Positions 45,373 to 63,757 of a DNA stretch of 64,000 nt are shown here, piece by piece. The notes below the pieces were generated by a model. That model saw only the letters and a list, made by a program, of their open reading frames with translations. It was not told the DNA's origin and searched no databases. Origin of the DNA: an uncultured bacterium (GTDB lineage: Bacteria; Patescibacteriota; Minisyncoccia; Phycocordibacterales; UBA6065). The translations under genes and the position numbers were made by a program. The number at the start of each line of letters is the position of its first letter. The stretch's first letter is position 1. The stretch covers positions 164,003 to 228,002 of the forward strand of contig CAWJEP010000005.1 in NCBI GenBank assembly GCA_963841935.1. The letters are read 5' to 3'.

Positions 45373-46404
45373 TTATACCACATGGTATTTTCCGTCTTTG
45401 TCTTTCTTGAAATATTTAGGATTCTGGAGATTGACCGTGATGGTGTTCTCTTTGACGTAGCGCTCTTTGAGAACTTTGTCGATAACTTCTTTTTTGGTAA
45501 GCGGACCGTTTTTTTCTATGACCGATTTCACGACGTCTTTGACCACGCCCGGAACGTATCCCCATTCGGAGAGAGCGTAGAGACCGCGACCGACGAGGAC
45601 AAAACGTTTGTCTTTGATGAGCTCGTTGTGAGTCGTCGCCACGTGAGCTTTCTTGTTGAAAAGCTTTTCAATTTGCTTGGCCACTTCGCTAAAATGAATC
45701 GGAGAGCCGTGCTTGCGAACCACGAGAAAAGCGTAATCCTTGATGCCTCGGGCCTTAATATTCGGAGATTTTGCTATGCCCCATTCGCCGAGAGGATTCT
45801 TGCCTACTTGTTTGGAAAGTCCGAGCCAACGTTTGAGAATTTCCTGGTCTTTATAATTTTCGTTGAGACCTTCGAGGTGTTTGAGGAACGATTCGATGAA
45901 TTCCGATTCCGGAATAATGTCTTCGTCTTTGAGACTCTTATAAATCTTGCGTAGAGCTTCTTCGATTCTCTTGGCGTGAGTGTCGTCTAGATGCCAACGA
46001 TGGGTGAATTCATCGTCCTCTTTCTGACGCTTGAAAGCCCGACCGAGAATGAGAAGGAAATAAATATGATTTTGGACGCTTTCGTCTTTTGAAACGCTGT
46101 CGAGCAAGTCTTCCTCGGCGATGATGCCGCCGAGAGCTTCCAAATGCTTTTCGAGTTCGGCAAATGCCGCCGAAGCGTCGGTGTATTCCTTGGATTTTTG
46201 AATGTTGGCGATAGCGTAGTTTTCGATTTGGCGAACGCGTTCACGAGTGATGCCGTAGCCCTTGCCGATGGCATCCAGTGTCATTTTTTCCGCGGAGGCG
46301 CCCAAGCCGTAACGCTTGGTGATGACGTCTTTGGCGCGGACAGGCAGGGCCTTGAGAAGGTTCTTGACCACTTGTTTCGGTTTGAATGAGAGAGTCGTTG
46401 TCAT
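45373..46404 (-). CDS. Sigma-70 region-4-like HTH domain protein with a long C-terminal extension
   Basis: 'ITKRYGLGASAEKMTLDAIGKGYGITRERVRQIENYAIANI' matches the sigma-70 region 4 HTH. Confidence 0.6.
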   Translation of the reverse strand: MTTTLSFKPKQVVKNLLKALPVRAKDVITKRYGLGASAEKMTLDAIGKGYGITRERVRQIENYAIANIQKSKEYTDASAAFAELEKHLEALGGIIAEEDLLDSVSKDESVQNHIYFLLILGRAFKRQKEDDEFTHRWHLDDTHAKRIEEALRKIYKSLKDEDIIPESEFIESFLKHLEGLNENYKDQEILKRWLGLSKQVGKNPLGEWGIAKSPNIKARGIKDYAFLVVRKHGSPIHFSEVAKQIEKLFNKKAHVATTHNELIKDKRFVLVGRGLYALSEWGYVPGVVKDVVKSVIEKNGPLTKKEVIDKVLKERYVKENTITVNLQNPKYFKKDKDGKYHVV

Positions 46405-46507: not shown

Positions 46508-49393
46508 CTAGTTTGGAACAATAAAATTTATTATTTTGTTTTTCACGTAAATTATTTTCGACGGTGTTTTTCCGGAGAGCCATTTCTCTAATTCCGACGC
46601 GGCAAAAGCGACTGCTTTTGCCGCGTCTTCGTCGGCATCCGCGGGCACCTCAATCACCGCGCGAACTTTGCCGTTTACTTGTACGGCAATATTTACTTTG
46701 GCGTCTTTGATAAACGCTTCATCCCACTTAGGCCAATCGGAAAGATGTATGGACTTTTTGTTTCCAAGCGAGCGCCATAATTCTTCGCTTATGTGTGGAG
46801 CGAAAGGCGCGAGAAGCTTCAAATAGCTCTCAAAATCGGCGCGAGCTATTGTCGGCACCTTGTCAAAAGCGTTTTGCAAAATCATAAGCGAACTTATCGC
46901 CGTGTTGAAACGCAAATTGGCGATGTCTTCGGTAACTTTCTTGATTGTTTTGTGTAAAAGCGTGTTTGTCGAAGAAAAAACAGCCTCTGGCGAGCGCGTA
47001 GTCTTAGCGGAGTCGGCGGAGCGCACAAGCGAGCCAGAGGCTGTTTTTTCGGAGACTTTCCACACGCGTTCGATGAACCGCCGCGAGCCAATCATACTGT
47101 CGGTGGACCATGCTATGGCTTGATCGAAAGGTCCCATAAACATTTCGTAAACGCGCAAAGTGTCGGCGCCGTATGTCGCGACTATGTCGTCGGGATTTAC
47201 GACATTGCCGAAACGTTTGGACATTTTTCTGCCGTCTTCGCCCATTATGAGTCCGACCGACTGCAATTTTTTAAACGGCTCGATTGTCGAGACAACGCCA
47301 ATGTCGTAAAGAAATTTGTGCCAAAAACGCGCGTATATGAGATGGCGTGTGGCGTGCTCGGCGCCGCCCACATAAAAGTCCACGCTGTTCCAATATTTTT
47401 CTTTTTTCGGAGAAACTAAAACCTTGGAGTCTTTCGGGTCCATATATCGCAAGTAATACCAAGAGCTCCCTGCCCATTGCGGCATCGTATTCGTCTCTCG
47501 TTTCATTCCTTTGAAATTGACCCATTTAGAAATCTCAGCCAAAGGCGACTCCCCCGTTCCCGTCGGTTCGTAATATTTCACTTTCGGCAATACCACCGGC
47601 AAATCTTTTTCCGAGACCGGCACTATTTTATTTCCGTTATGAAGCACCGGGATCGGCTCACCCCAATAGCGCTGCCGTGAGAAAACCCAATCTTTCAATT
47701 TGTATTTCGTCACCCATTTTCCGCCGGCTTTTTCGATGGCGTTCCTATCGGCAAACGGTTCGTCCTTTACGGGCAACTTGAACTTTTCCGCGAACGCCGC
47801 GTCTCTCTCGTCGTGTTTCGGCACTCCCATCACGGCTCCCGTGCCGTAATCGGCAAGGACATAGTCAGCAATCCAGACCGGCACCTCTTCCCCATTCACT
47901 GGATTTACCGCCTTGATTCCTTTCAATTCAACGCCGGTTTTTTCTTTCTTTGCGTCCGTGCGCTCAATTTCCGTTTTGATTCTCGCGGCGGCGACATATT
48001 TCACGACTTCTTTTTCGTTTTTCACTTCATGCAAAAGTTTTTCCACGAGCGGATGCTCCGGAGAAAGCACGACATACGTCACGCCGAAAAGCGTGTCTGG
48101 ACGAGTAGTGAAAACTTTTATTTTTTCCGTTTGATTTTTTATGGCGAAATCGATTTCCGCGCCTTCGCTTCGGCCAATCCAATTTCTCTGCGCCTCTTTT
48201 ATGGATTCCGGCCAATCAAGAAGCGGCTTCACAATATGGCGTGGCGCGCCGTCCATTACCAAATCCCAGCCGAGTTTCGAACCTTCGGCCGTCATTGCGT
48301 CACGAACTTTTTCCTCGGGAAGCCAAGTGACTTCGTGTTTGGCTTGTTCGTCAGCTACGACAGGAGCTTGTTCGCCGTCTTTTAGTTTGAAATAAAAAGA
48401 AGTGAAATGTCCGACGCGGTTTTCGTCTTTCGGCGGATGGAAAAATGTCGAGTGGTATTGACCGGCGCTTCTTTTCACGAGCGTCAGGTTTTTAAATCCC
48501 GTCTCTTCGAATATTTCCGCTCGCGCCGCTTCTTCCGGCGTCTGGCCTTTTTCGATGCCGCCAGTGATAGGAGTCGTCCAATCCACCTTTTTCCATTTGA
48601 GAACTATAAATTTCTTCTCCGACCAGTGTTCGACAAAAGCGCATATGGCGTTTCTCGGAACAAACGGCTTGTCCAATCTCACTTTGCCCGGAACATCGCT
48701 ATTCATATGGGTGATTCCAAATTCGCCATTCGGCAATGTCTCAAAAATGTCGCCGTTTGGCAAAACATTGGTGTCCAAGTCTTTCAAAAGTCTGTCGGCG
48801 TAATCGGTGATTTTCAAAACCCACTGGCGCATCGGTTTCTTCTCGACCGGCGTGCCGCAGCGCTCGCAGCGACCGTCTTCGACGTCTTCGTTCGCGAGGC
48901 CGGTCTTACACGACGGACACCAATTTATCGGCTCGTATGATTCGTAAGCCAAGCCTTTTTCCAAAAGTTTGAGAAAAATCCATTGCGTCCATTTGTAATA
49001 TTTCGGGTCGGTCGTGTTGATTTCCCTACTCCAATCATAATCAAAACCAATGATTTCCAGCTGTTTTTTGTACCTTGCGACATTTTTCGCCACGGCCACG
49101 ACCGGATTGGTCTTGGTCAAAATGGCGTAATTTTCCGCCGGCAAGCCGAAAGCGTCGAAACCCATTGGATGTAAGACGTTGTGCCCCTGCATCCTTTTCA
49201 TTCGGGAGACGATGTCGGTCGCGATGTAGCCCTTCGGATGGCCGACATGAAGACCTTCGCCCGAAGGATACGGAAACATATCGAGAACATAAAACTTGGG
49301 CTTGGGAGAATCATCCTTGGTCGCGTATATTTTCTTTTTCGCCCACCCCTTCTGCCACTTTTTTTCTATTTTCTTATGGTCGTATTGTTTCAT
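46508..49393 (-). CDS. leuS: Leucyl-tRNA synthetase carrying (i) an inserted NUDIX hydrolase domain and (ii) an in-frame palindromic-element insertion
   Basis: 'HVGHPKGY' HIGH motif, 'KMSKRFGN' and editing/anticodon domains. A Nudix box 'GGIEKGQTPEEAARAEIFEETGF' sits between '...LKDLD' and 'WPESIKEAQRNWIGRSEG'. Start is the ATG at 49393. Confidence 0.9.
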   Translation of the reverse strand: MKQYDHKKIEKKWQKGWAKKKIYATKDDSPKPKFYVLDMFPYPSGEGLHVGHPKGYIATDIVSRMKRMQGHNVLHPMGFDAFGLPAENYAILTKTNPVVAVAKNVARYKKQLEIIGFDYDWSREINTTDPKYYKWTQWIFLKLLEKGLAYESYEPINWCPSCKTGLANEDVEDGRCERCGTPVEKKPMRQWVLKITDYADRLLKDLDTNVLPNGDIFETLPNGEFGITHMNSDVPGKVRLDKPFVPRNAICAFVEHWSEKKFIVLKWKKVDWTTPITGGIEKGQTPEEAARAEIFEETGFKNLTLVKRSAGQYHSTFFHPPKDENRVGHFTSFYFKLKDGEQAPVVADEQAKHEVTWLPEEKVRDAMTAEGSKLGWDLVMDGAPRHIVKPLLDWPESIKEAQRNWIGRSEGAEIDFAIKNQTEKIKVFTTRPDTLFGVTYVVLSPEHPLVEKLLHEVKNEKEVVKYVAAARIKTEIERTDAKKEKTGVELKGIKAVNPVNGEEVPVWIADYVLADYGTGAVMGVPKHDERDAAFAEKFKLPVKDEPFADRNAIEKAGGKWVTKYKLKDWVFSRQRYWGEPIPVLHNGNKIVPVSEKDLPVVLPKVKYYEPTGTGESPLAEISKWVNFKGMKRETNTMPQWAGSSWYYLRYMDPKDSKVLVSPKKEKYWNSVDFYVGGAEHATRHLIYARFWHKFLYDIGVVSTIEPFKKLQSVGLIMGEDGRKMSKRFGNVVNPDDIVATYGADTLRVYEMFMGPFDQAIAWSTDSMIGSRRFIERVWKVSEKTASGSLVRSADSAKTTRSPEAVFSSTNTLLHKTIKKVTEDIANLRFNTAISSLMILQNAFDKVPTIARADFESYLKLLAPFAPHISEELWRSLGNKKSIHLSDWPKWDEAFIKDAKVNIAVQVNGKVRAVIEVPADADEDAAKAVAFAASELEKWLSGKTPSKIIYVKNKIINFIVPN
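46974..47050. repeat. Palindromic repeat element copy D inserted in frame within leuS (arms aaaaaacagcctctgg / ccagaggctgtttttt)
   Basis: Core gagcgcgtagtcttagcggagtcggcggagcgcacaagcgag. It is translated as ...KTASGSLVRSADSAKTTRSPEAVFS... in LeuRS. Confidence 0.8.
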
Positions 49394-49823
49394 TTTTAAA
49401 TTTGCGCAGAGCGAGATATATGAGTGCGATGAGAGCAATGCCGAGAATGACGACTCTCATCCAGCCGTAAGCCGACGACCAATATCTGAAAGACGCTATG
49501 ACAAGCGTGAGTATTCCGGAGAACGAAAGCGATGTGGAAACCACGGCATTTGTTTTCAAAAAGAAACTTAGGACGATGAGAATGACTCCGACGGCGACGA
49601 GAGTCATAAAGACTTCCGCCTGATAATTATTTTCCGCGGCGGTGTAATTATTTGAGCAAATGACATCGTTGGATTGCGGCGTAATAACGTCCGTTTGCGG
49701 GCAGAAATCGTTATATTGTGGCTCTTGGTAAATAAGCGAAAGAGAATAATTTATGAACATATTGGCGACGATGACGATGCCAATGATGAGCGACCATTTG
49801 AGAAGTTTTGATTGCTTTTGCAT
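49374..49823 (-). CDS. Hypothetical membrane protein (3-4 TM)
   Basis: Hydrophobic helices. It overlaps the leuS start by about 20 nt. Confidence 0.5.
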   Translation of the reverse strand: MQKQSKLLKWSLIIGIVIVANMFINYSLSLIYQEPQYNDFCPQTDVITPQSNDVICSNNYTAAENNYQAEVFMTLVAVGVILIVLSFFLKTNAVVSTSLSFSGILTLVIASFRYWSSAYGWMRVVILGIALIALIYLALRKFKNETIRP

Positions 49824-52899: not shown

Positions 52900-54252
52900 T
52901 TATCCCGTCCAATGCGAGGCCATGATACTGAAGTCAACGAGGTCAACCTTGCCGTCACCGTTTAAGTCCGCCGACTTTGGCGGATTTGAACGATTAAACC
53001 AATACGCGAGAATGGAAAAATCAATGAGATTTACCTTACCGTCGCAGTTTATGTCTGATTTTATGCAAGCGGTGGAAACTGGTACTAAAACGTCTTGCGT
53101 GCCGACGGAGAAACCAACCGAGGCGCTAAACTCGCTTATATTGCCTTGAGTTGAGGATTTTGATTTCGTCGTGTGGTCGCCGTAGTCAAGCGGCGTGGTA
53201 TCAAGATTGTAAAGATAAATACCGCTTTTATCCGACGCGGTAACTCCAAAAAGGGTCTGGTCGGAATTTACTTGTATGGTAACCGTGCTTGAAGCGGATG
53301 TTTGCCCGAAAATAGCAAGATTGTCGCCTTTCTTAACCTCGCTTTTATCAACGGCAATGGTGGGAACGATGAAAATACTCCCAATGTTTGTCGTCACGCC
53401 GGATGTCACGCTTGCCGGAAACGTTAAGAGGTCGGAACGCCGTCCCGCGTTGTCGCTTCCATAAACGGAAAACAAATAATTTCCCGCCGGGACACCGCTT
53501 ACCTCTACTTGAAAATTAGCGTCGGCGTCGGCAATAGTGGAAGCGACAACTTGAGCATCTTCAAGAATCGTCACATCACTTGACGGATACGCCCGACCAG
53601 AAAAAATCACGTTGCCCATGCCGGAGGGAGTTGAATTATAATTTCCGCCGCCGCCCCCTCCACCACCTCCTCCGCCTCCACCTCCACCACCGCCTCCACC
53701 GCCGCCACCTGATGATGCCGGAGTCGCGGAGACCTCGGACGAAGTCGCGATAACATTGCTGAACGTGTCCAATACATCCACCACAAAATAGTAAGTCGTG
53801 CCATTGGAAAGACCTGTTTGCGCGTGAGAAAACGTGTTACCGACGGAAGTGAAAGAGTAAGGTCCGCCCGGCGTCGTCCCCTGCCCTATTGAATATCCGG
53901 AAATGCTAAGTCCGCTTCCGGCGGTTGCCGACGTCCAAGACAAAGATACTTGAGAATCGCCGGGAGTCGTCTGGACGACGGGCGAAGAAAAATAGGGAAA
54001 ATAAAGAAAACCACCTAGAACGTCAAAAGAGTTCCCCGTTGAGATGCCTATGGCCGCCTGGTCCATGGCTCCGAGCAATTCAAAACTATTGGACGAACTA
54101 TAATTCCCGGAGTTTATAATCGGATTACGGACTTGATAATCAGAGGAATAGAATGTTTGTGAATGAACGGGTTTTATGTTTAAAAAAAATGTGCCGGAAA
54201 TTAGCAATAAACAAATTAGAAAAAATTGTTTCTGTAAATTTTTAAAATACAT
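52900..54252 (-). CDS. Secreted protein with FN3/Ig-like domains, a (Gly)23 linker and a C-terminal type-I dockerin domain
   Basis: Two Ca-binding dockerin repeats 'DINCDGKVNLIDFSILAYWF' and 'DLNGDGKVDLVDFSIMASHW', a 23-Gly run and a signal peptide. Confidence 0.7.
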   Translation of the reverse strand: MYFKNLQKQFFLICLLLISGTFFLNIKPVHSQTFYSSDYQVRNPIINSGNYSSSNSFELLGAMDQAAIGISTGNSFDVLGGFLYFPYFSSPVVQTTPGDSQVSLSWTSATAGSGLSISGYSIGQGTTPGGPYSFTSVGNTFSHAQTGLSNGTTYYFVVDVLDTFSNVIATSSEVSATPASSGGGGGGGGGGGGGGGGGGGGGGNYNSTPSGMGNVIFSGRAYPSSDVTILEDAQVVASTIADADANFQVEVSGVPAGNYLFSVYGSDNAGRRSDLLTFPASVTSGVTTNIGSIFIVPTIAVDKSEVKKGDNLAIFGQTSASSTVTIQVNSDQTLFGVTASDKSGIYLYNLDTTPLDYGDHTTKSKSSTQGNISEFSASVGFSVGTQDVLVPVSTACIKSDINCDGKVNLIDFSILAYWFNRSNPPKSADLNGDGKVDLVDFSIMASHWTG

Positions 54253-54272: not shown

Positions 54273-55217
54273 TTATTGCGTCTGTCCGTCAGTGGTATCC
54301 GATGCGGTAGTTGTTTCAACAGTCGGCGCCGGCGTTTCGGTTGTGGATGTGGCCTCCAGCGTTGGCTCTTGAGTCGTATCCGAAGTTGACGTGGCGGTTT
54401 CCGAAGTCTCTGTTGAAGTTGTAGCCGTCGCGGTCGTGTAATCGGTTGCCGTTTCTGTAGTTGTCGCGGTTGCGGTTTCAGTTGTAGTTGCGGTTGAAGT
54501 TGTCGCGGTTGCGGTTGAAGTTGAAGTTACGGTTGAAGTTACCGTCGGTTCTTGCGCGGATTCCGTTTGAGATGAAGTCGGATTTGAAGTCTGGTTTACT
54601 TGGGATTCCGGGTTCGGAGTAGAAACTACGACCGATGTTTGCCTTGCTTCTACGGTAGCGGCAACTTCCGGAACGGCTTCCGGTATGACCGGATTATAAC
54701 CTTCTATGATTTCTGTTCTGGGATTCAAGAATTTTCCGATAAGGCCGGAATATTCCACCGTAACTACTTTTTGAGACGACCCTGCCGCTTCTTCCAGTTT
54801 CTGAACTCTTTTCAAAGAAGATAGTTCGTAGTTGATATTGTCACTCAACTCTTTTGCAACATAGAGCCCGAGGTCTTTATCGCCCAAAGCCGCCTTGCTT
54901 ACCGTCAAAGTTTTTTCTACCTGTTTTACCTGCCAGGCACCGTCAACAATTGCCAGCGTCTGATAGGAATAATCGGCATAATAATTTTTATCGTCATCGG
55001 TAATGGAATTTATCTTCAGATTGAAATTAAAGTTATCCAAATCGGTAGAAAGAATCAAACTATTATCCACGGAAGTCACTGCGGTTCTGCTGGAATATAT
55101 ACTATCGCGCGCCGTTGGGCTGGCGGCAAAAACTATTCCGGAACTAAAAAAACAAACGATAAAAACAATGGTAAAAGCGTTATTGTATTTTACGAAATTG
55201 AGAACTTTTTTATACAT
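54273..55217 (-). CDS. Secreted protein with a Thr/Ser-rich mucin-like C-terminal tail
   Basis: Signal peptide, then about 100 residues dominated by T/S/A/E ('TSTVTSTSTATATTSTATTTETATATTTETAT...'). Confidence 0.6.
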   Translation of the reverse strand: MYKKVLNFVKYNNAFTIVFIVCFFSSGIVFAASPTARDSIYSSRTAVTSVDNSLILSTDLDNFNFNLKINSITDDDKNYYADYSYQTLAIVDGAWQVKQVEKTLTVSKAALGDKDLGLYVAKELSDNINYELSSLKRVQKLEEAAGSSQKVVTVEYSGLIGKFLNPRTEIIEGYNPVIPEAVPEVAATVEARQTSVVVSTPNPESQVNQTSNPTSSQTESAQEPTVTSTVTSTSTATATTSTATTTETATATTTETATDYTTATATTSTETSETATSTSDTTQEPTLEATSTTETPAPTVETTTASDTTDGQTQ

Positions 55218-55259: not shown

Positions 55260-58200
55260 TTAACAATTCCAAATCACTCCGTTTATATCCATAATCGACG
55301 CGGCCGGCATTCCATTGACTGTTTTTATTGAAGTTTTATCGAGATTGTTTATTGTTTTTAGTTCCACGACGCAAACAGATGGGCTGACCGAAGGTGAGAT
55401 ACTCGGTGACGGGCTGACGCTTGGACTGGGAGAAACGCTCGGTGAAATTGACGGTGATGGACTGATTGATGGTGAAGCTGATGGACTTGGAGAAGTGCTC
55501 GGTGAGAGTGACGGTGAAAGTGACGACAAAGGTGACGGTGATATGGATGGCGATATCGATGGAGATTCGGATGGAGAGATAGATGGACTAAGAGACGGCG
55601 AAGGGCTGACGCTCGGTGACAAAGATGGGCTCGGACTGACAGATGGAGATACCGAGGGTGAAAGGCTTGGGCCGATGGACGGCGAAAGTGACGGCGAAAG
55701 TGATGGGCTGATACTCGGCGAGAGACTTGGCGAGAGAGACGGTGATGGAGAAACTGACGGGGAAACTGAAGGACTTAAACTTGGACTAAGAGATGGTGAG
55801 GGCGAAACCGAAGGAGAAATGCTCGGAGAAAGCGATGGTGAAAGTGATGGGCTCGGACTAACTGAAGGTGAAATGCTCGGCGAGAGAGACGGGCTGAGTG
55901 ACGGCGACAAACTCGGCGAAAGTGAAGGACTTGGAGATACGGACGGCGAAACGGACGGAGAAATACTCGGCGAGAGAGATGAACCAGCTGAAGGAGAAAC
56001 CGAGGGAGAGATACTTGGCGAAAGTGACGGACTTGGGGAAACGGACGGCGAAACCGAAGGTGAAATGCTTGGCGAGAGTGATGGGCTTGGCGAAACCGAC
56101 GGCGAAATACTCGGTGAAAGTGAAGGAGAAAGTGACGGAGACAAACTCGGCGAGAGAGACGGCGATGGAGAAACTGACGGACTAACTGAAGGACTTAAAG
56201 ATGGCGAGAGCGAGGGACTTGGTGAAGTCGAAGGTGAAACGCTTGGGCTAAGCGAAGGTGAAAGAGACGGCGAGAGACTCGGCGATAGACTTGGGCTCGG
56301 TGAAACTGAGGGTGAAACCGACGGAGAAATACTTGGCGAGAGTGAAGGGCTTGGACTAACCGATGGTGAAATACTTGGTGAAAGAGATGGAGACAAACTT
56401 GGCGAGAGACTCGGCGAAATGCTCGGGCTCGGTGAGACCGAAGGGCTGACTGATGGTGAGATGCTCGGTGAGAGTGATGGCGAAGGTGAAACCGATGGTG
56501 AGATCGATGGTGAGAGAGATGGACTAAGTGATGGAGAAAGTGATGGCGATATCGAAGGGCTTGGACTGACTGATGGTGAGACCGAAGGACTCAAACTCGG
56601 TGACAGAGACGGTGATGGCGAAACCGACGGCGAAATACTCGGTGAAAGTGAAGGAGAAAGTGACGGAGACAAACTTGGCGAGAGAGACGGCGATGGAGAA
56701 ACTGACGGACTAACTGAAGGACTTAAAGATGGCGAGAGCGAGGGACTTGGTGAAGTCGAAGGTGAAACGCTTGGGCTAAGCGAAGGTGAAAGAGACGGCG
56801 AGAGACTCGGCGATAGACTTGGGCTCGGTGAAACTGAGGGTGAAACCGACGGAGAAATACTTGGCGAGAGTGAAGGGCTTGGACTAACCGATGGTGAAAT
56901 ACTTGGTGAAAGAGATGGAGACAAACTTGGCGAGAGACTCGGCGAAATGCTCGGGCTCGGTGAGACCGAAGGGCTGACTGATGGTGAGATGCTCGGTGAG
57001 AGTGATGGCGAAGGTGAAACCGATGGTGAGATCGATGGTGAGAGAGATGGACTAAGTGATGGAGAAAGTGATGGCGATATCGAAGGGCTTGGACTGACTG
57101 ATGGTGAGACCGAAGGACTCAAACTCGGTGACAGAGACGGTGATGGCGAAACCGACGGCGAAATACTCGGTGAAAGTGAAGGAGAAAGTGACGGAGACAA
57201 ACTTGGCGAGAGAGACGGCGATGGAGAAACTGACGGACTAACTGAAGGACTTAAAGATGGCGAGAGCGAGGGACTTGGTGAAGTCGAAGGTGAAACGCTT
57301 GGGCTAAGCGAAGGTGAAAGAGACGGCGAGAGACTCGGCGATAGACTTGGGCTCGGTGAAACTGAGGGTGAAACCGACGGAGAAATACTTGGCGAGAGTG
57401 AAGGGCTTGGACTAACCGATGGTGAAATACTTGGTGAAAGAGATGGAGACAAACTTGGCGAGAGACTCGGCGAAATGCTCGGGCTCGGTGAGACCGAAGG
57501 GCTGACTGATGGTGAGATGCTCGGTGAGAGTGATGGCGAAGGTGAAACCGATGGTGAGATCGATGGTGAGAGAGATGGACTAAGTGATGGAGAAAGTGAT
57601 GGCGATATCGAAGGGCTTGGACTGACTGATGGTGAGACCGAAGGACTCAAACTCGGTGACAGAGACGGTGATGGCGAAACCGACGGCGAAATACTCGGTG
57701 AAAGTGAAGGAGAAAGTGACGGAGACAAACTTGGCGAGAGAGACGGCGATGGAGAAACTGACGGACTAACTGAAGGACTTAAAGATGGCGAGAGCGAGGG
57801 ACTTGGTGAAGTCGAAGGTGAAACGCTTGGGCTAAGCGAAGGTGAAAGAGACGGCGAGAGACTCGGCGATAGACTTGGGCTCGGTGAAACTGAGGGTGAA
57901 ACCGACGGAGAAATACTTGGCGAGAGTGAAGGGCTTGGACTAACCGATGGTGAAATACTTGGTGAAAGAGATGGAGACAAACTTGGCGAGAGACTCGGCG
58001 AAATGCTCGGGCTCGGTGAGACCGAAGGGCTGACTGATGGTGAGATGCTCGGTGAGAGTGATGGCGAAGGTGAAACCGATGGTGAGATCGATGGTGAGAG
58101 AGATGGACTAAGTGATGGAGAAAGTGATGGCGATATCGAAGGGCTTGGACTGACTGATGGTGAGACCGAAGGACTCAAACTCGGTGACAGAGACGGTGAT

Positions 58201-60012
58201 GGCGAAACCGACGGCGAAATACTCGGTGAAAGTGAAGGAGAAAGTGACGGAGACAAACTTGGCGAGAGAGACGGCGATGGAGAAACTGACGGACTAACTG
58301 AAGGACTTAAAGATGGCGAGAGCGAGGGACTTGGTGAAGTCGAAGGTGAAACGCTTGGGCTAAGCGAAGGTGAAAGAGACGGCGAGAGACTCGGCGAAAT
58401 GCTCGGGCTCGGTGAGACCGAAGGGCTGACTGATGGTGAGATGCTCGGTGAGAGTGATGGCGAAGGTGAAACCGATGGTGAGATCGATGGTGAGAGAGAT
58501 GGACTAAGTGATGGAGAAAGTGATGGCGATATCGAAGGGCTTGGACTGACTGATGGTGAGACCGAAGGACTCAAACTCGGTGACAGAGACGGTGATGGCG
58601 AAACCGACGGCGAAATACTCGGTGAAAGTGAAGGAGAAAGTGACGGAGACAAACTCGGCGAGAGAGACGGCGATGGAGAAACTGACGGACTAACTGAAGG
58701 ACTTAAAGATGGCGAGAGACTCGGCGATAGACTTGGGCTCGGTGAAACTGACGGACTGACTGAAGGACTTAAAGATGGCGAGAGCGAGGGACTTGGTGAA
58801 GTCGAAGGTGAAATGCTCGGCGAGAGAGAGGGCTGAAAGTGACGGCGAGAGACTCGGCGATAGACTTGGGCTCGGTGAAACTGAGGGTGAAACCGACGGA
58901 GAAATACTTGGCGAGAGTGAAGGGCTTGGACTAACCGATGGTGAAATACTTGGTGAAAGAGATGGAGACAAACTTGGCGAGAGACTCGGCGAAATGCTCG
59001 GGCTCGGTGAGACCGAAGGGCTGACTGATGGTGAGATGCTCGGTGAGAGTGATGGCGAAGGTGAAACCGATGGTGAGATCGATGGTGAGAGAGATGGACT
59101 AAGTGATGGAGAAAGTGATGGCGATATCGAAGGGCTTGGACTGACTGATGGTGAGACCGAAGGACTCAAACTCGGTGACAGAGACGGTGATGGCGAAACC
59201 GACGGCGAAATACTCGGTGAAAGTGAAGGAGAAAGTGACGGAGACAAACTCGGTGAAAGACTCGGCGAAAGACTTGGACTTGGAGATACGGAGGGTGAAA
59301 TGGACGGAGAAAGAGATGGAGAAATACTCGGACTAAGCGATGGACTAAGTGACGAAATAAACCATGTGATTTGAATGACTCCGTTTCCTCCCTGTCCTCC
59401 TGTGTTACCGTTTCTTCCCGACCCTCCACCACCGCCTCCATAGTTTGCTCCGTTAGCGCCAGTTGCGTTTACTCCTCCAGCTCCTCCGTTTCCGGCTGGA
59501 GTTCCCCCATTTGCTCCACCAGCGTGAGTTCCCGACCCATTCGCTCCGGTTCCTCCGTTTCCAGTGTTCCCGGCTCCTCCACCTCCTCCACCTCCGTTGT
59601 TGCTACCTCCGTTTCCTCCGTTTCCTCCGTTGTGTGACGTCCAAGTGACGACTCCGTTACCGGTTGTGTTGCTATTACCCCCGACTCCACGTGCGCCACC
59701 GGCGTTGCCTCCACCACCTCCACCGGCCGCCTCGATGATAAGAGTGTTGCCCGCAGTATTGAAAAATGTGGTTCCGCCAGCGCCGCCGGATGCGTTTGCG
59801 GTTCGTGTTCCGCCGTTTCCGGCGGAATAATTAAAAGCGATGTTCGGACCAGATATGGTTATAGTTGTCTGAGCCCAAGCGCCACCACCACCACCACTAC
59901 CGTTGTTGCCTCCACCACCTCCACCTCCACCTCCAATAACCTGAACAACCGCGGAAGTTGCTGTGGTGCTATTCCATGTACCGCTACCTGTAAGATTTGA
60001 TGTTGTCGCCAT
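55260..60012 (-). CDS. Giant (about 1580 aa) protein: Gly/Asn-rich N-terminal domain followed by more than 1100 aa of (S-P-S-L/I/V)n low-complexity repeat. Interrupted by one frameshift at about 58836-58850.
   Basis: ORF 58690-60012 starts with a non-repetitive Gly-rich domain and runs in frame into SPSx repeats. ORF 55260-58652 continues the same repeat. The repeat consensus gains +1 nt at about 58845. All neighbours are minus-strand. The plus-strand alternative (acidic GExxGE repeat, ORF 55315-58836) cannot be excluded. Confidence 0.55.
55400..59340. repeat. Tandem-repeat DNA: 12-nt (4-codon) units organised into 528-bp higher-order repeats (at least 4 near-identical copies at 56101-58212, plus partial copies)
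   Basis: 'accgaaggactcaaactcggtgacagagacggtgatggcgaaaccgacggcgaaatactc' recurs at 56581, 57109, 57637, 58165 (period 528) and again at 58561 (period 396). Confidence 0.9.
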
Positions 60013-60042
60013 TAATTTTGGTCGGAGGCCTTTGTTAAATTA

Positions 60043-61236
60043 CTACCGACTATCAAATGCTTTCCTTGTTTTATCTATAGACCATATATTTCCCGCTTCA
60101 TTTTCGCTGTATATATCAAATTCGAAAAGCGCGTCTTTGACACTCTGTCTATCAAAGTCATGTCCGCAAAGAATTTTTTTACACTTCGGATACCACGCGT
60201 TTAGGTCTCTTAAGACGGACTCTTTGTCATGAGCGCCGTCGATAAAGACCATGTCTATGGAGTTATCTTCAAAATGCTTCGCCGCCTCGGCGCTATCCAT
60301 TTTTAATATTTCGACGTTTTTGAAACCCGACATATTCCGTCTCAAATCCGATTCGGCGTCGGGATTAAATTTTGATTTCTGAGAGAAATTATCTACAAGT
60401 GTCACTTTCCCGGGACATCCGCTGGCGATGGCGTGACCGCTTTTTCCTTTCCAGCTTCCAATTTCAACGACCGATTTCATTTTTTTGGCCGTGAGATAAA
60501 GCCAGGTCATTTCCGACAAGAGCAAATACCCTTCTATTTTGGGGTCTTTATAATCGCTGATTTCCCAATTAGCCAAAGTTTTTATCATTCCTTTAACTTT
60601 TTGCTTGGTAGGTATTACATATTCATGCCACAGGTAGTTTCCTCCGGCGTTTATTTCCTGGGTCAGTTGTGTGACGGTTTTGAATTTCAACCCGTATTTG
60701 GCTATGTTTCTTGAAAGAGTGTAATCGTCAATGAGATGTTCCCGCGTAACAACTGTGTTTAACTCTTTCTGAATGGGAAAAATATTTCCAAGCGCCTCTT
60801 CGTAGGGAATATCAAGAGGGTGCCAGAGGTCAAGGCACCAATCCGAGGCAATGGTGAACCAGTTGCAAGAACCGATATTCCTGCCGTCACGGATGAAATA
60901 TTTGTCATAACGCGAACGGTTATTGGCCATGTCACAACCGTTATGAACCACGGTGTCTTTCTTGATAAAATTCGTCACATCAAAAAAATCCGGGTGAACC
61001 AGAGCGTCCGAGTCGATATAAATATTCCAATCGTTGCCCATTTTTTTGCCGAGCTCGTAAATTTGCAATTTTTCGTAAACCGGCGGCATATTTGGAAATT
61101 TGCGCTCGGAAATTATGTGGAAATCCGCTCCGATTTTCTCCGCGTAGCGTTTTATCAAGGGATAAGTAAGCTCTGTTATTTCCGGAGCGTAATTATCGAC
61201 GTTCAAAGTGAAAATTGTTTTTTTAAGTTTTGACAT
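60043..61236 (-). CDS. Putative GT-A-fold glycosyltransferase (DxD) fused to a C-terminal class-I SAM-dependent O-methyltransferase domain
   Basis: N-terminal half is paralogous to the next two genes ('KKTIFTLNVDNY...YEKLQIYELG...IDSD'). C-terminal 'VVEIGSWKGKSG...IDMVFIDGAHDKESV' is an O-MTase (Methyltransf_24-like) motif. Confidence 0.5.
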   Translation of the reverse strand: MSKLKKTIFTLNVDNYAPEITELTYPLIKRYAEKIGADFHIISERKFPNMPPVYEKLQIYELGKKMGNDWNIYIDSDALVHPDFFDVTNFIKKDTVVHNGCDMANNRSRYDKYFIRDGRNIGSCNWFTIASDWCLDLWHPLDIPYEEALGNIFPIQKELNTVVTREHLIDDYTLSRNIAKYGLKFKTVTQLTQEINAGGNYLWHEYVIPTKQKVKGMIKTLANWEISDYKDPKIEGYLLLSEMTWLYLTAKKMKSVVEIGSWKGKSGHAIASGCPGKVTLVDNFSQKSKFNPDAESDLRRNMSGFKNVEILKMDSAEAAKHFEDNSIDMVFIDGAHDKESVLRDLNAWYPKCKKILCGHDFDRQSVKDALFEFDIYSENEAGNIWSIDKTRKAFDSR

Positions 61237-61237
61237 T

Positions 61238-61969
61238 TTATTTTATATAATTCCAATTTTTTAATTTCTCCCTGATTTTCTCGGCTCTGTCTTTTTCTTG
61301 AACCGAAAAATCATAATAAAAATATTCATCTCCGCCCCTTCCTATTTCATTGAGAAGGTTCACGAAAGTTTTGAATTTTATGCCGTATTTGGCGATATTT
61401 CTGCTTACAACGTAATCATCAATGCCTTGCTCATTGGTGTGTCCGGTCATTTCTTCACGGTGAATGATATTAATATTTTTGAGCGCTTCGGGAGCTGTCA
61501 TATCGTCAAGCGGTTTCCAAATCTCATGACATAGTGATGAAGCGACTGTTAGAAATGATGTGCTGTTTATATTTCTGCCGTCTCGTCTAAAGAAATTGTC
61601 GTAACTGAAACGGTTACCCGCGAAATCAACGCCGAAATTTAAAACCGTATCTTCTGGAAGAACTTCAGTTATGTCAAAAAGGTCCGGATGAACCAAGCAG
61701 TTCGGGTCGATGTAATAGTTCCAGTCATTATCCTTTCCAAGTTCGTAAATCTGAAGTTTTTCGTACATTACGGGGTAATTCGGAAACTTGCGTTCATTGA
61801 TTATCTTCAAATCCGCGCCAATTTTGTCTGCGAATCTTTTAAGAAAAGGTAAGGTAAGTTTCACTACTTCGATATCATAATTGTCAAAACCCAGCGTGAA
61901 AATGGTTCTCTTTAATTTTTTTTGTGGTTGGTCGGAGTACATATATAAATTATTAATTAATAACCCCAA
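61238..61969 (-). CDS. Putative GT-A-fold glycosyltransferase, paralog 2 of the tandem triplet
   Basis: 'KRTIFTLGFDNYDIEVVKLTLPFLKRFADKIGADLKIINERKFP...YEKLQIYELGK...YYIDPN' is paralogous to 60043-61236 and 61957-62649. Confidence 0.5.
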   Translation of the reverse strand: MGLLINNLYMYSDQPQKKLKRTIFTLGFDNYDIEVVKLTLPFLKRFADKIGADLKIINERKFPNYPVMYEKLQIYELGKDNDWNYYIDPNCLVHPDLFDITEVLPEDTVLNFGVDFAGNRFSYDNFFRRDGRNINSTSFLTVASSLCHEIWKPLDDMTAPEALKNINIIHREEMTGHTNEQGIDDYVVSRNIAKYGIKFKTFVNLLNEIGRGGDEYFYYDFSVQEKDRAEKIREKLKNWNYIK

Positions 61970-62649
61970 GAACTAATGCGTTCCTTTATTTCTTTGATTT
62001 TTTTTTCTTTGGGGATACCGAACTGGTGGTATATAAGCCCATAATCCTGTAAGCCCCTCTCGACGAAGACATCCCTTAGGGCCTTATATTTTAGGCCGTA
62101 TTTGGCGATATTTCTGGAAATAAGATAATCATCAATAAGATAATCGGGTGTGTAACCTATTAATTCTTCGTTGTGCCAAGGGTGGAAACGGCTGAATATT
62201 TCTTTCTTGGTCAGATCGGTAATCGGCTCCCACATTTCGCGACACAGATTTGAAGCGAACATCATACAACTTCCCATAGACACGTGTCTTCCGGCTCGCA
62301 AAAAATAATTGTCGAGCTCGTAGTGTCCCTCCAGAGGATTTACTCCCCATGTTGAAACAGTGTCGTTTGAAATAACCTCGGTGATGTCAAAAAGTTTGGG
62401 GTTAATCAAAACATCGCAATCAAAAAAAAGTCCCCAATCAATATCTTTACTCAGTTCGTAGATTTGAAATTTTTCGTAAATAACGGGATATTCCGGAAAT
62501 TTTCTTTTGTTAATTTCCACGAACTCGGCGCCGATTTTGTCGGCATACATTTTCATATATGGATAAGTAAGCTTGGTTATATCGTCAGCGTAACCATCAA
62601 TATTGAGGGTAAAAATCGTTTTCTTGATTTTTCTAGGTATGTCATTCAT
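61957..62649 (-). CDS. Putative GT-A-fold glycosyltransferase, paralog 3 of the tandem triplet
   Basis: 'KKTIFTLNIDGYADDITKLTYPYMKMYADKIGAEFVEINKRKFP...YEKFQIYELSK...FFDCD'. Start is the ATG at 62649. Confidence 0.5.
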   Translation of the reverse strand: MNDIPRKIKKTIFTLNIDGYADDITKLTYPYMKMYADKIGAEFVEINKRKFPEYPVIYEKFQIYELSKDIDWGLFFDCDVLINPKLFDITEVISNDTVSTWGVNPLEGHYELDNYFLRAGRHVSMGSCMMFASNLCREMWEPITDLTKKEIFSRFHPWHNEELIGYTPDYLIDDYLISRNIAKYGLKYKALRDVFVERGLQDYGLIYHQFGIPKEKKIKEIKERISSWGY

Positions 62650-62791
62650 ATTATTTCTTAATAATTTCCCATTAATTCCCCCGTTCACATAAAGAAAAGG
62701 CAAGTTTATTTTAGTAAACCCGTGAACATATTGTAGCATTTTTAAAATCGGACCTTACATTACGGCATCGCCTTCACTCAGACTCTGGATT

Positions 62792-63757
62792 TCATTTGAT
62801 TTTCTTGATTTTATCCAAATCTTCCTGTTTCCAACCATTTACCGGCCAGAACTTTTCCAAGAGCCAGGACATGGGATAGATTTGTTTCGGCCAATTATTA
62901 TCAAAAAATAAATTCCAGACTTTCTTTTTTGTCTTTTGAACTTCGCTCTCGTGTTGCGGATATGGGAACCCGAAATCCCCGCCTTGTGTCCTGAACATAT
63001 GGGCATACCAAGTTTTATGATTGACGAGTACCCTGCCACCGGAGAGCCATGTCTTTACGGCCACTTCTATTCCCTGATTGCCCCAGTTGCCGAGTTTCTC
63101 GTCGCAGATATTGAGCTCCCAGTATTTTTCGCGAGTCAGCATAAAGCATGAACCTTGGAGCGACAGCGTTTCGGTTAAACCCGTTTCTTCCAAATCTTTT
63201 TTATATCCCGGTCTTTTGGTGTAGTCGTTGAAATATTGAAAATGCGGTTCGGCGTCGAAACTGTACGAATTGCTTTGAGGCCTTTCCTTGCCGACCCATA
63301 TCATTTTTCTCCTCATGTGTTTTTCGTCTCCGCATTGTTCGCATTTCTTCGGTGTCGGACCTTGATACTTTTTCCAACCGCACTTGTAGCATTTCCAATC
63401 AAAGGCCCAGAGATTTCGCATGGTCGGCACCATGGTCACGTTGTCCCCGACTTTCTTGAAAGCTTCTATCATTTTGCGGTCAAAACCTTTGTCAAAAGCG
63501 CAGTGAGCGTCGACTTTCATCACGTATTTGGCCTTTGAAAGTTTGCAGGCGAGATTGGCCGTGGCTCTTTGACCAATGGATTCCGGGACATATATGACGT
63601 TTACCCTCTCGTTTTGGAGCACGGGCGGGTCGGCCCACTTCCCATCCAAGACGACTATGACCTCCGTATCGGCTTCTATGTTGGCCAAAATGTCCTCTAT
63701 GGTCCTTTGGAGGAACATTTCATTTCTGGCGGGTATAAGTATGGATAATTCTTTCAT
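62792..63757 (-). CDS. Family-2 glycosyltransferase with an inserted CxxC...CxxC zinc-ribbon
   Basis: 'LSILIPARNE...VVLDGKWAD...DAHCAF' is a GT2 signature. 'CYKCGWKKYQGPTPKKCEQCGDE' is an insertion. Confidence 0.7.
   Translation of the reverse strand: MKELSILIPARNEMFLQRTIEDILANIEADTEVIVVLDGKWADPPVLQNERVNVIYVPESIGQRATANLACKLSKAKYVMKVDAHCAFDKGFDRKMIEAFKKVGDNVTMVPTMRNLWAFDWKCYKCGWKKYQGPTPKKCEQCGDEKHMRRKMIWVGKERPQSNSYSFDAEPHFQYFNDYTKRPGYKKDLEETGLTETLSLQGSCFMLTREKYWELNICDEKLGNWGNQGIEVAVKTWLSGGRVLVNHKTWYAHMFRTQGGDFGFPYPQHESEVQKTKKKVWNLFFDNNWPKQIYPMSWLLEKFWPVNGWKQEDLDKIKKIK

Follow-up and report, generated by a model that had tools for sequence, protein, structure and literature searches.

Three adjacent minus-strand genes at positions 60043-62649 of the window (the whole 64,000-nucleotide stretch of DNA analysed here) encode paralogous predicted GT-A glycosyltransferases, one of them fused to an O-methyltransferase, beside the gene of a giant fibre in a bacterium with a tiny genome. 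On balance, we favour the explanation that these GT8-like transferases and the sugar O-methyltransferase glycosylate the adjacent fibre, methyl cap included. Because such a pair of enzyme and fibre is otherwise typical of phage tail-fibre modules, the locus most likely decorates its fibre with a methylated glycan. The features of the locus are as follows.

60043-61236, minus strand: c1, 397 aa, GT-A domain plus C-terminal methyltransferase domain
60559-61236, minus strand: GT-A domain of c1 (aa 1-226), with DSD at 61006-61014 and His204 in WHEY at 60619-60630
60064-60519, minus strand: class I SAM methyltransferase domain of c1 (about aa 240-391; PF13578)
61238-61942, minus strand: c2, 234 aa, stand-alone GT-A domain, with DPN at 61700-61708 and Tyr210
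61957-62649, minus strand: c3, 230 aa, stand-alone GT-A domain, with DCD at 62413-62421; gta HMM match at E=2e-97
62792-63757, minus strand: GT2-family glycosyltransferase, 321 aa (PF00535, E=1.4e-12), with a CxxC...CxxC zinc-ribbon-like insert
59347-60012, minus strand: glycine-rich N-terminal domain (Gly_rich_2) of the fibre (PF21722, E=2.4e-8)
55260-59346, minus strand: stalk of Ser-Pro-Ser repeats with the short C-terminal end of the fibre, from the open reading frames and frameshift analysis
54273-55217, minus strand: Thr-rich protein with an N-terminal hydrophobic segment, downstream context gene
52900-54252, minus strand: Big_6 and Dockerin_1 protein, downstream context gene

The open reading frame of c2 spans 61238-61969, and its real start was placed at the ATG at 61942 from orthologous gene calls in a related locus, L001; for c3 (open reading frame 61957-62739), the start is the ATG at 62649, which is also where the earlier note had ended the region. 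That note had described three adjacent minus-strand paralogs with shared N-terminal motifs, and the open reading frames of the window bear this out: the copies are 43-54% identical, all of the quoted N-terminal motifs were found, and translation confirmed the DSD, DPN, and DCD motifs, one per copy. The two other copies share 54% and 43% identity with c1, and BLASTP aligned c1 with c3 at E=1e-55. The most divergent paralog is c3, which carries NPK instead of HPD and RAGR instead of RDGR.

The window belongs to a cellular genome, as aminoacyl-tRNA synthetases, RpoA, DnaK, FtsW, and MurG are encoded within it, and housekeeping genes, among them LeuRS and MnmA, flank the locus. The closest relative of this genome is a Saccharibacteria MAG. 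No tRNA or Rfam match was found in the window. GC content in 1-kb bins across 60001-63000 was 0.42, 0.37, and 0.39, below most of the remaining window (mostly 0.44-0.55, with a few other low bins), as had been claimed. Of the operon genes that the window captures, the GT2 gene stands furthest upstream; most of the glycan cluster beyond it is located past the end of the window, as are the priming enzyme and the donor-sugar functions. The GT2 product gave a weak rubredoxin-like match and has no transmembrane segment, and its orthologue in L001 is 541 aa long with an extra C-terminal domain.

Fold and family of the enzyme domains

Direct Pfam and NCBIfam scans of the N-terminal domain of the three proteins returned nothing significant, and a PHROG scan gave only a weak match of c1 to phrog_28746 (unknown function, E=0.018). 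The 52 family members likewise gave only sub-threshold matches, to Glyco_transf_21, GT8, and GT2; the GT8 model PF01501 matched none of c1, c2, and c3 at E<=1 and two of the 52 members, both at E>=0.04. NDUFB10 (E=0.018), the sole PDB match of the three-paralog profile, was rejected as spurious. Assignment of the domain as a GT-A fold glycosyltransferase is nonetheless well supported by predicted fold and by the DxD-type motif. The AlphaFold model of c2 (pLDDT 93.9) is a Rossmann-like alpha/beta/alpha domain with a central mixed sheet that matched GT-A glycosyltransferases in the fold search, and the motif directly follows core strand 72-76. Across the family alignment (A2), the first Asp of the DxD never varies, and conservation of the second reaches 96%. 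In its second half, the domain carries motifs of its own (RDGR and IDDYxxSRNIAKYG) and no GT8 KPW motif.

Profile comparison connected the family to GT8. Aligned by hhalign with A6, a set of GT8-positive domains, A2 gave a probability of 98.9% (E=1.1e-17) over 200 columns, with DxD falling on DxD and the family His on the GT8 metal-binding His. Of the five A6 domains, four were scanned and carry PF01501 at 24-41 bits against a cutoff of 24.3 bits: three lie at 27-41 bits, and P0278 is just below the cutoff (24.1); the fifth domain is P0310. A PDB search with A6 recovered the GT8 domain of WbbM (2e-6) and LgtC (4e-4). The family therefore appears, by full-domain profile homology to GT8 (LgtC, the WbbM GT8 domain, glycogenin, and GlyE), to be a divergent relative of CAZy GT8, although the PF01501 threshold is unmet. 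As divergent GT8 relatives, its members probably take a nucleotide sugar as donor and act by a retaining mechanism, which is probable also by analogy with the nearest structural neighbours, A64R domain 1, XXT1, and LgtC, all of which are retaining. A hydropathy scan found no transmembrane segment in any of the three copies; we infer that they are soluble cytoplasmic Mn2+/DxD-type GT-A glycosyltransferases, with catalysis and sugar donor predicted. It is very improbable that the N-terminal domains are something else with a GT-A-like fold, such as sugar-phosphate nucleotidyltransferases or fibre-folding chaperones. The earlier note had named assignment to a non-glycosyltransferase family as the outcome that would overturn its proposal, and what the profiles returned was homology to GT8-positive domains. 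The family comprises about 1,100 representative clusters at 50% identity, is encoded on 219 viral (IMG/VR) contigs, and has no Pfam, PHROG, or NCBIfam model.

The C terminus of c1 is a Methyltransf_24 class I SAM methyltransferase, as proposed for the 397-aa copy, and this assignment is well supported: PF13578 matched aa 257-354 at E=1.9e-15 (58.1 bits versus a cutoff of 26.3). The SAM-binding motif VEIGSWKGKSG occupies aa 257-267 (60436-60468), and FIDGAHD lies at 60226-60246. A model of the complete fusion, built on an alignment without locus-derived sequences, reached a pLDDT of 94.2 and has a Rossmann fold in the methyltransferase domain. The top Foldseek match of that domain was MeT1 (6g7d, E=3e-10, 21% identity), followed by catechol and tRNA O-methyltransferases; by sequence, the isolated domain matched PDB entries weakly at best (TrmR, E=0.026). 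MeT1 is a mannoside O-methyltransferase that works on free methylmannose polysaccharide in the cytoplasm. Other members of the family have TylF/Methyltransf_24 methyltransferases fused at either end of the domain, and GT8 and GT9 domains also occur as fusion partners. The MeT1 match and the TylF-type fusions indirectly suggest a sugar hydroxyl as the predicted methylation target.

Age of the paralogs and the altered motif of c2

The three genes had been described as a tandem triplication. Three paralogs are indeed present, but a recent tandem duplication was rejected, since the paralogs are 43-54% identical to one another versus 89% to their orthologues, and in the tree the copies fall into three orthologous groups, each of them old. 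These groups are also found in Saccharibacteria genomes and in one Zambryskibacteria genome, and orthologues of c3 occur in L001 and in the Zambryskibacteria locus L007 (also fetched as L033). Gene order is shared as well: c3-c2-c1-fibre recurs in L001 and L007, and c2-c1-fibre in L004. All three copies are under purifying selection, with dN/dS values of 0.09-0.12 (0.097 for c2 and 0.12 for c3). Upstream in the relatives' clusters (L001, L004, and L033) are GT2 enzymes, methyltransferases, an NAD-dependent sugar epimerase/reductase, and an RGP mutase, so that the glycan-biosynthesis partners whose search had been suggested are present in orthologous clusters.

Grouping DPN of c2 with the DxD motifs held only in part. 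The motif is found at the expected site, but it is not an equivalent variant: c2 has the sole Asn at the second DxD position among 27 locus-derived copies, 25 of which keep D-x-D (the other exception being DSE in L015), and Asn stands there in 2 of the 52 rows of A2. Alongside this change, the second predicted metal ligand, a His conserved in the family, is Tyr210 in c2, and both Saccharibacteria copies of c2 have Tyr at this position, which aligns with the GT8 metal-binding His. With these substitutions, two of the three predicted metal ligands are gone in c2, whose metal binding may be unusual. Tentatively, c2 might be inactive or mechanistically altered, a pseudo-glycosyltransferase serving as a scaffold or presenting substrate to c1 or c3; we regard this as possible but clearly less probable than fibre glycosylation itself. 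Decay of c2 was rejected, as its dN/dS of 0.097 indicates a gene kept for some function. Set against a loss of activity are the ability of Asn still to coordinate metal, the intact remainder of the conserved c2 surface (YEKxQ, RDGR, and IDDYxxSRN), and the retention of both Asp and His in the c2 orthologues of L004 and L007; a single D-to-N change could also be a sequencing error. A pseudo-enzyme reading of c2 is compatible with fibre glycosylation.

The fibre gene and its neighbourhoods in cells and phages

The fibre gene lies downstream of c1 across a gap of about 30 bp. A neighbour with SPS repeats had been noted, and it does adjoin the locus; it is, however, one gene with the preceding glycine-rich open reading frame, from which a single frameshift near 58835 of this assembly's sequence separates it, giving open reading frames of 440 aa and 1130 aa. 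An intact 1802-aa equivalent is present in L004. The product of about 1570 aa consists of a glycine-rich tip and a Ser-Pro-Ser stalk. A hydropathy scan of the N-terminal domain found no signal peptide and no transmembrane segment, and with no recognisable signal peptide a surface location of the fibre is itself presumed. By profile, the glycine-rich domain matched RemZ of Flavobacterium (E=1e-6), the phage tail wing brush protein gp33 (8e-5), and the cyanophage Pam3 tail fibre gp24 (2e-3), and it thus resembles phage receptor-binding fibre tips at the profile level. Such glycine-rich tips recognise the host receptor in phages. Unlike those tips, the glycine-rich domain here sits at the N terminus, ahead of Ser-Pro-Ser repeats that span more than 1300 aa, and its accessory neighbour is a glycosyltransferase, whereas a Tfa-like chaperone has been described for Pam3. 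A literature search on PF21722 found no papers. Candidate acceptors are SPSLSPSISPSV peptides and the glycine-rich domain (aa 1-222).

Across loci of the family, a gene with a glycine-rich domain was directly adjacent on the same strand at 13 of about 20 evaluable genome or metagenome loci and at 17 of 79 viral loci; about a third of the cellular loci and most of the viral ones had no glycine-rich neighbour detectable with the HMM used. The earlier note had tied the enzymes to a Ser-Pro repeat fibre. A fibre neighbour does recur, but several partner proteins are without any Ser/Pro repeat, and the conserved partner of the family is the glycine-rich domain, not the Ser-Pro repeat. In the viral loci, terminase, portal, and capsid genes are found at a distance of 2-3 genes, and four further loci (L011, L013, L016, and L017) resemble prophages in carrying portal, head, tape-measure, and baseplate genes. 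The c1 glycosyltransferase domain shares 70-72% identity with phage copies located immediately before glycine-rich fibre genes. Outside the CPR loci considered here, the enzyme-fibre pair is mostly an element of phage structural modules. Among deposited phage genomes, tblastn found one weak homologue of the enzyme (MH319737, 31.7% identity); with the glycine-rich query it found nothing, probably through the low-complexity filter. Both a Ser-Pro stalk of more than 1300 aa and a set of three paralogs occurred only in CPR and CPR-like cellular loci and in none of the viral contigs fetched.

Known systems share parts of this arrangement, and GlyE, A064R, and the Corndog cassette are published precedents for its logic. 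GlyE, a GT8 enzyme of the pneumococcal PsrP island, acts on PsrP; the GtfA/GtfB (GT4) pair and SecA2/SecY2 of SRRP islands were absent among the roughly 35 window open reading frames scanned with Pfam, and none was found in the precomputed Pfam annotations of L001, L004, and L033. In chlorovirus PBCV-1, A064R combines a GT-A rhamnosyltransferase, a glycosyltransferase, and a sugar 2-O-methyltransferase domain, in that order (PMC9614988). It offers a precedent for the logic of glycosyltransferase plus methyl cap in c1, but differs in its second glycosyltransferase domain, in its target (an N-glycan on the capsid protein of a eukaryotic virus), and in sequence, where identity is about 12% with no sequence-level homology seen. 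The cluster O mycobacteriophage Corndog has, within its structural module, an O-methyltransferase of TylF/Methyltransf_24 type (gp35) and three small tandem glycosyltransferases (gp36-38, 206-289 aa) that reportedly modify capsid and tail-tube proteins. It differs in having GT2-like and GT25 enzymes, a separate methyltransferase gene, hosts among the Actinobacteria, and targets other than a glycine-rich fibre. As family homologues, gp36-38 were rejected (family HMM E>0.2). Structural-gene neighbours of the kind found in the Corndog module accompany the family's viral loci, whereas PHROG detected none at the window locus.

Proposed fibre glycosylation and competing explanations

In the mechanism that we favour, c1-c3 would lie at the 3' end of a larger operon for glycan assembly, which terminates at the fibre gene. 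The canonical phage-type partner of the receptor-binding-like glycine-rich domain would be c1, whose methyltransferase domain would O-methylate a sugar, most simply the one added by c1 itself, giving a methyl cap as in A064R. As old CPR-specific paralogs, c2 and c3 most likely add further, different sugars in sequence, or c2 may alternatively be an altered or non-catalytic partner. The acceptor would most likely be the adjacent fibre, which would receive its glycan in the cytoplasm and be exported afterwards. The identity of the acceptor, O-linkage to Ser/Thr, and the order of action are what we infer from this arrangement; with the glycine-rich neighbour missing at many loci, the acceptor there may differ or be another structural protein.

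The enzymes could instead build a non-protein glycan, such as a methylated envelope polysaccharide, a glycolipid, or a cytoplasmic methylated polysaccharide, with the fibre merely encoded in the same surface island. The orthologous clusters do resemble polysaccharide loci in their several GT2 enzymes, several methyltransferases, and epimerase/reductase, the best structural match of the methyltransferase domain acts on a free polysaccharide, and some family members are fused to an LPS-type GT9 domain. We nevertheless consider this unlikely, given that no flippase, polymerase, ABC exporter, or polyprenyl-phosphate priming transferase was found within about 10 kb in L001, L004, and L033, that the pair of glycosyltransferase and glycine-rich protein recurs in phage structural modules without other glycan genes, and that so short a gap separates c1 from the fibre gene. 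Still less probable is a phage-derived cassette that continues to serve a phage, whether as a prophage remnant or a satellite, with the fibre as tail fibre and virion proteins as glycosylated targets. Its appeal lies in the many IMG/VR contigs with terminase, portal, and capsid genes nearby, the four prophage-like loci, the closeness of the c1 domain to phage copies, the homology of the glycine-rich domain to phage fibre tips, and the low GC of the locus. A PHROG search of the flanking genes of the window and of the L001/L033 cluster genes tested returned no match, and on the negative result for its flanking genes the window locus was rejected as a prophage. The housekeeping flanks and the cell-specific stalk and paralogs also speak against a phage role, as does the matching chromosomal arrangement in the Zambryskibacteria genome, where the order at L033 is likewise fibre, unknown gene, and Big_6/Dockerin gene.

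Speculatively, a mobile two-gene cassette for a glycosylated fibre, made up of the GT8-like family and a polyglycine tip, might be common to phages and bacteria. Ultra-small CPR bacteria (Saccharibacteria, Zambryskibacteria, and Woesebacteria) would then have adopted this phage-type tip, set it on a Ser-Pro stalk of more than 1000 residues, and multiplied its lone transferase into three specialised paralogs with a methyl-capping domain, yielding a heavily glycosylated attachment fibre that possibly holds host cells, with c2 turning non-catalytic. Taken as a whole, we hold this scenario to be doubtful.

CPR/Patescibacteria are mostly episymbionts, and to our knowledge the molecules that attach them to their host cells are largely unknown. 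The locus offers a testable candidate for attachment: a giant fibre whose tip resembles the receptor-binding tips of phages and which comes with predicted glycosylation and methylation enzymes of its own. It also brings to light a newly defined glycosyltransferase family, a substantial minority of whose loci lie directly beside glycine-rich fibre genes. Should the tips be unglycosylated, GT-A enzymes and an O-methyltransferase in a glycan operon would still be a correct, ordinary annotation. If the tips are glycosylated, this would be a widespread and so far undescribed modification of receptor-binding proteins in phages and bacteria, one that, if true, would have implications for host range, for immune recognition, and for how phage fibres are engineered.

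Three paralogous genes and their neighbourhood

Three neighbouring minus-strand ORFs, c1, c2 and c3, were found at the site claimed in the earlier note, together with the shared motifs it had quoted and the DSD, DPN and DCD motifs.

Paralogous genes and DxD-type motifs (window positions)
60043-61236, minus strand: c1, ORF of 397 aa
61238-61969 as listed, minus strand: c2, 234 aa from the ATG at 61942, a start taken from orthologous gene calls in the Saccharibacteria MAG L001
61957-62739 as listed, minus strand: c3, 230 aa from the ATG at 62649, the coordinate of the earlier note
61006-61014, minus strand: DSD of c1
61700-61708, minus strand: DPN of c2
62413-62421, minus strand: DCD of c3

Intergenic spacing is tight: 14 bp separate c3 from c2, 1 bp separates c2 from c1, and the gene after c1 follows at 30 bp. 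The other two copies share 54% and 43% identity with c1, and BLASTP of c1 against c3 gave E = 1e-55, which places their paralogy beyond chance. GC content is lower here, as had been claimed (0.37 to 0.42 across 60-63 kb versus mostly 0.44 to 0.55 elsewhere in the window, with a few other low bins).

c1 is followed on its own strand by a fibre gene of approximately 1570 codons, split by a single frameshift near 58835 into two ORFs:

58690-60012, minus strand: 440-aa glycine-rich ORF, the 5' part
55260-58652, minus strand: 1130-aa Ser-Pro-Ser ORF, the 3' part

The frameshift falls inside the repeat, and misassembly, genuine pseudogenisation or slippage-type variation could account for it; the intact equivalent in the metagenome contig L004 has 1802 aa. 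The first 222 residues match Pfam Gly_rich_2, and the Ser-Pro-Ser repeats come after this domain. The domain profile matched RemZ, a phage protein named 'tail wing brush' and the tail fibre of cyanophage Pam3, where the glycine-rich domain is the receptor-binding tip (PMC9608196). Eight N-x-S/T sequons were counted in its 222 residues (59347-60012, minus strand); they would be relevant if glycosylation turned out to be N-linked, and their number may merely reflect an Asn/Ser/Thr-rich composition. Plus-strand 'GE/GD-rich' ORFs at 55315-58836 (1173 aa) and 58775-59374 (199 aa) were rejected as genes, being antisense readings of the Ser-Pro-Ser repeat.

Upstream of c3, a soluble GT2 enzyme (62792-63757, minus strand) carries a zinc-ribbon-like insert (CxxC...CxxC, rubredoxin-like); only 243 bp of the window remain past its start codon. 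It lacks an approximately 220-aa C-terminal domain, with no Pfam match, present in its orthologues at L001 7559-9184 (541 aa) and L004 7399-9054 (551 aa). Glycan-biosynthesis partners, which the earlier note had proposed looking for, are present upstream in the clusters of relatives. Besides the 541-aa version of this GT2, L001 has two other GT2 enzymes and four additional methyltransferases. L004 encodes three GT2 enzymes together with methyltransferases and an NAD-dependent sugar epimerase/reductase, and the Zambryskibacteria locus (L007, also labelled L033) encodes a GT2 along with an RGP-type mutase and an RmlD-like reductase.

As a whole, the window represents part of the chromosome of a bacterium with a small genome, encoding LeuRS, AlaRS, HisRS, AspRS, GluRS, CysRS, RpoA, DnaK, FtsW, MurG, DnaB, GAPDH and transketolase. 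Of the genomes in the collection, the closest to it is a Saccharibacteria MAG, with proteins 89% identical. Several unusual genes were also observed, all on the minus strand: a leucyl-tRNA synthetase (46508-49438, 976 aa) with a NUDIX hydrolase domain at residues 286-382 (E = 7e-12), an unusual arrangement in which this domain follows the first catalytic-core match and precedes the editing domain; a short alanyl-tRNA synthetase (38787-40481, 564 aa); an ATP-cone and Mrr_cat nuclease fusion (42187-43023); and a Sigma70_r4 and HARE-HTH protein (45373-46404).

Domain identity and divergence of the copies

Direct profile scans of the N-terminal domains of c1 to c3 gave no significant match in Pfam, NCBIfam or PHROGs (one weak PHROG match for c1, E = 0.018), and among 52 family members scanned, glycosyltransferase matches were sub-threshold only. 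A family profile recovered 1,087 relatives at E ≤ 1e-3 from 1.84 billion representative proteins, 190 of them at E ≤ 1e-30. Fusion partners in multidomain members are TylF/Methyltransf_24 methyltransferases, N- or C-terminal, GT9 heptosyltransferase-like domains, or a second domain matching Pfam GT8 (four members scanned, three above threshold). These GT8-positive domains match WbbM and LgtC by sequence; hhalign aligned them with the family over 200 columns (98.9% probability, E = 1e-17), pairing DxD with DxD and the family His with that of the GT8 'HYAG' motif. In the AlphaFold model of c2 (52 homologues; pLDDT 93.9, pTM 0.91), the D-x-(D/N) motif directly follows the strand at 72-76, and the fold matches GT-A glycosyltransferases. 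We therefore place the N-terminal domain within the GT-A fold, in an unnamed family that is a divergent sister of GT8; it is not filed as a GT8 member because the Pfam GT8 threshold was missed. No assignment to a non-glycosyltransferase family emerged, and the earlier proposal of a glycosyltransferase is supported. That these domains are not glycosyltransferases at all is very improbable. Two members from the representative search (P0238 and P0259) have a glycosyltransferase domain interrupted by a LAGLIDADG-type intein just past the invariant RDGR motif, a position that fits RDGR as a functionally critical site.

The C-terminal methyltransferase claimed for c1 was recovered above cutoff: residues 257-354 match PF13578 Methyltransf_24 (58 bits, cutoff 26), and the domain carries the SAM-binding motif VEIGSWKGKSG. 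The best PDB matches of the full-length c1 model (pLDDT 94.2) were four chains of Mycobacterium hassiacum MeT1 (E = 3e-10, 21% identity), a 1-O-methyltransferase of methylmannose oligosaccharides (PMC9883506), followed by catechol-O-methyltransferase-like enzymes. Homologues of the domain are mostly stand-alone proteins of approximately 175 aa, named 'predicted O-methyltransferase YrrM' by JGI. We infer that a sugar hydroxyl is most likely its substrate.

The supposed tandem triplication stands as three tandem paralogs but is not recent, since a neighbour-joining tree (without support values) placed c1, c2 and c3 in three separate groups, each including the corresponding gene of L001 and L007; signature residues are concordant, and L004 holds c2 and c1. 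Values of dN/dS between the window and L001 (0.091, 0.097 and 0.122) indicate that all three copies are maintained. Identity to viral-contig copies reaches 70-72% for the c1 glycosyltransferase domain versus at most 51% for c2 and 48% for c3, making c1 the canonical form and c2 and c3 lineage-specific divergent paralogs. c3 shows approximately 14 departures from family-conserved residues, including HPD to NPK and RDGR to RAGR. In c2, Asn replaces the second Asp of DxD (the sole Asn among 27 locus-derived copies compared; two of 52 rows in the family alignment, window c2 included), and a conserved His is Tyr, as in its L001 orthologue. By GT8 alignment, these are two of three predicted Mn2+ ligands, so c2 may be mechanistically altered or non-catalytic. 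Pseudo-enzyme status for c2 is possible, though less likely than not, and would be compatible with our main explanation.

Fibre partnership, phage relatives and a proposed pathway

Other loci were examined with HMMs built from our own alignments. A glycine-rich-domain gene directly adjoins the family gene, on the same strand, at 13 of approximately 20 evaluable genome and metagenome loci and at 17 of the 79 viral loci. Several partners lack Ser/Pro repeats, so the earlier link to the Ser-Pro-Ser protein survives as direct adjacency, but the conserved partner is the glycine-rich domain, not the repeat. A methyltransferase is fused or adjacent at nine of those genome/metagenome loci and at 19 of the 79 from viruses. 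The window, L001, L004 and L007 all combine multiple copies with a methyltransferase fusion and a long Ser/Pro-rich stalk. Woesebacteria L019 shares the fusion and a Ser/Pro-rich fibre but encodes a single copy; these loci (three named taxa being CPR lineages, L004 a metagenome contig) are not phylogenetically independent.

The order fibre, unknown gene, Big_6 and Dockerin protein is shared with the Zambryskibacteria genome (Big_6 and Dockerin_1 at window 52900-54252, minus strand, and L033 15992-17359), suggesting that a cohesin-dockerin type of extracellular assembly is conserved. The orthologous clusters have, close to their ends, TatA (L001 166-351) or TatA with TatC (L004 17700-18882); no twin-arginine signal is present in the fibre protein, and a tie to its export is speculative.

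The family is encoded on 219 IMG/VR contigs; those retrieved carry genes for terminase, portal and HK97-like capsid at a distance of two or three genes. Often a radical-SAM gene comes next: of 79 viral contigs, 17 (e.g., L041 9264-10205) encode an approximately 312-aa radical-SAM-like protein (CxxxCxxC; PF04055 E = 1e-5, sub-threshold) located downstream of the glycosyltransferase by one to three genes. In the 'genome' loci of Chloroflexia, Phycisphaerales, Cyclobacteriaceae and Patescibacteria UBA926, the pair has portal, head, tape-measure, tail-fibre and baseplate genes for neighbours, and these loci are prophages or phage contigs. For all this, a cassette still serving a phage is improbable in the window: a PHROG scan of its flanks and of the cluster genes of L001 and L033 gave no match, the next recognisable flanking genes are housekeeping, and gene order is shared with Zambryskibacteria. 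The window locus is thus most likely a cellular one, using a gene pair otherwise typical of phage fibre modules.

The best overall explanation, to which we give slightly better than even weight, is that glycosyltransferases and a methyltransferase decorate the adjacent fibre. That the three proteins are glycosyltransferases, with a methyltransferase, acting on a glycan is highly probable; that the fibre is the acceptor has about an even chance or a little more. That these enzymes build a glycan unattached to protein is unlikely. No transmembrane segment or signal peptide was found in GT2, c1, c2, c3 or the fibre protein, so assembly would be cytoplasmic. In the proposed order, upstream enzymes would prime and extend the glycan, c3, c2 and c1 would add further sugars, and the methyltransferase fused to c1 would methylate a sugar, probably as a terminal cap. 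Precedents exist for this logic. In A064R, a single protein combines a GT-A domain with a further glycosyltransferase domain and a 2-O-methyltransferase domain, and GT8 enzymes act on serine-rich repeat adhesins. Mycobacteriophage Corndog encodes an O-methyltransferase (gp35, in the same Pfam families as the c1 domain) and three tandem small glycosyltransferases, reportedly modifying capsid and tail tube, although the latter enzymes are not homologous to our family.

GT-A transferases, Methyltransf_24 methyltransferases and glycosylation operons beside repeat-rich fibres are known kinds. To our knowledge, what is new within the libraries searched is the family, for which no curated model exists; its repeated pairing, in phages and in bacteria, with glycine-rich receptor-binding tips; and, in CPR bacteria, its expansion to three specialised paralogs with a methyl-capping fusion beside a giant Ser-Pro fibre.
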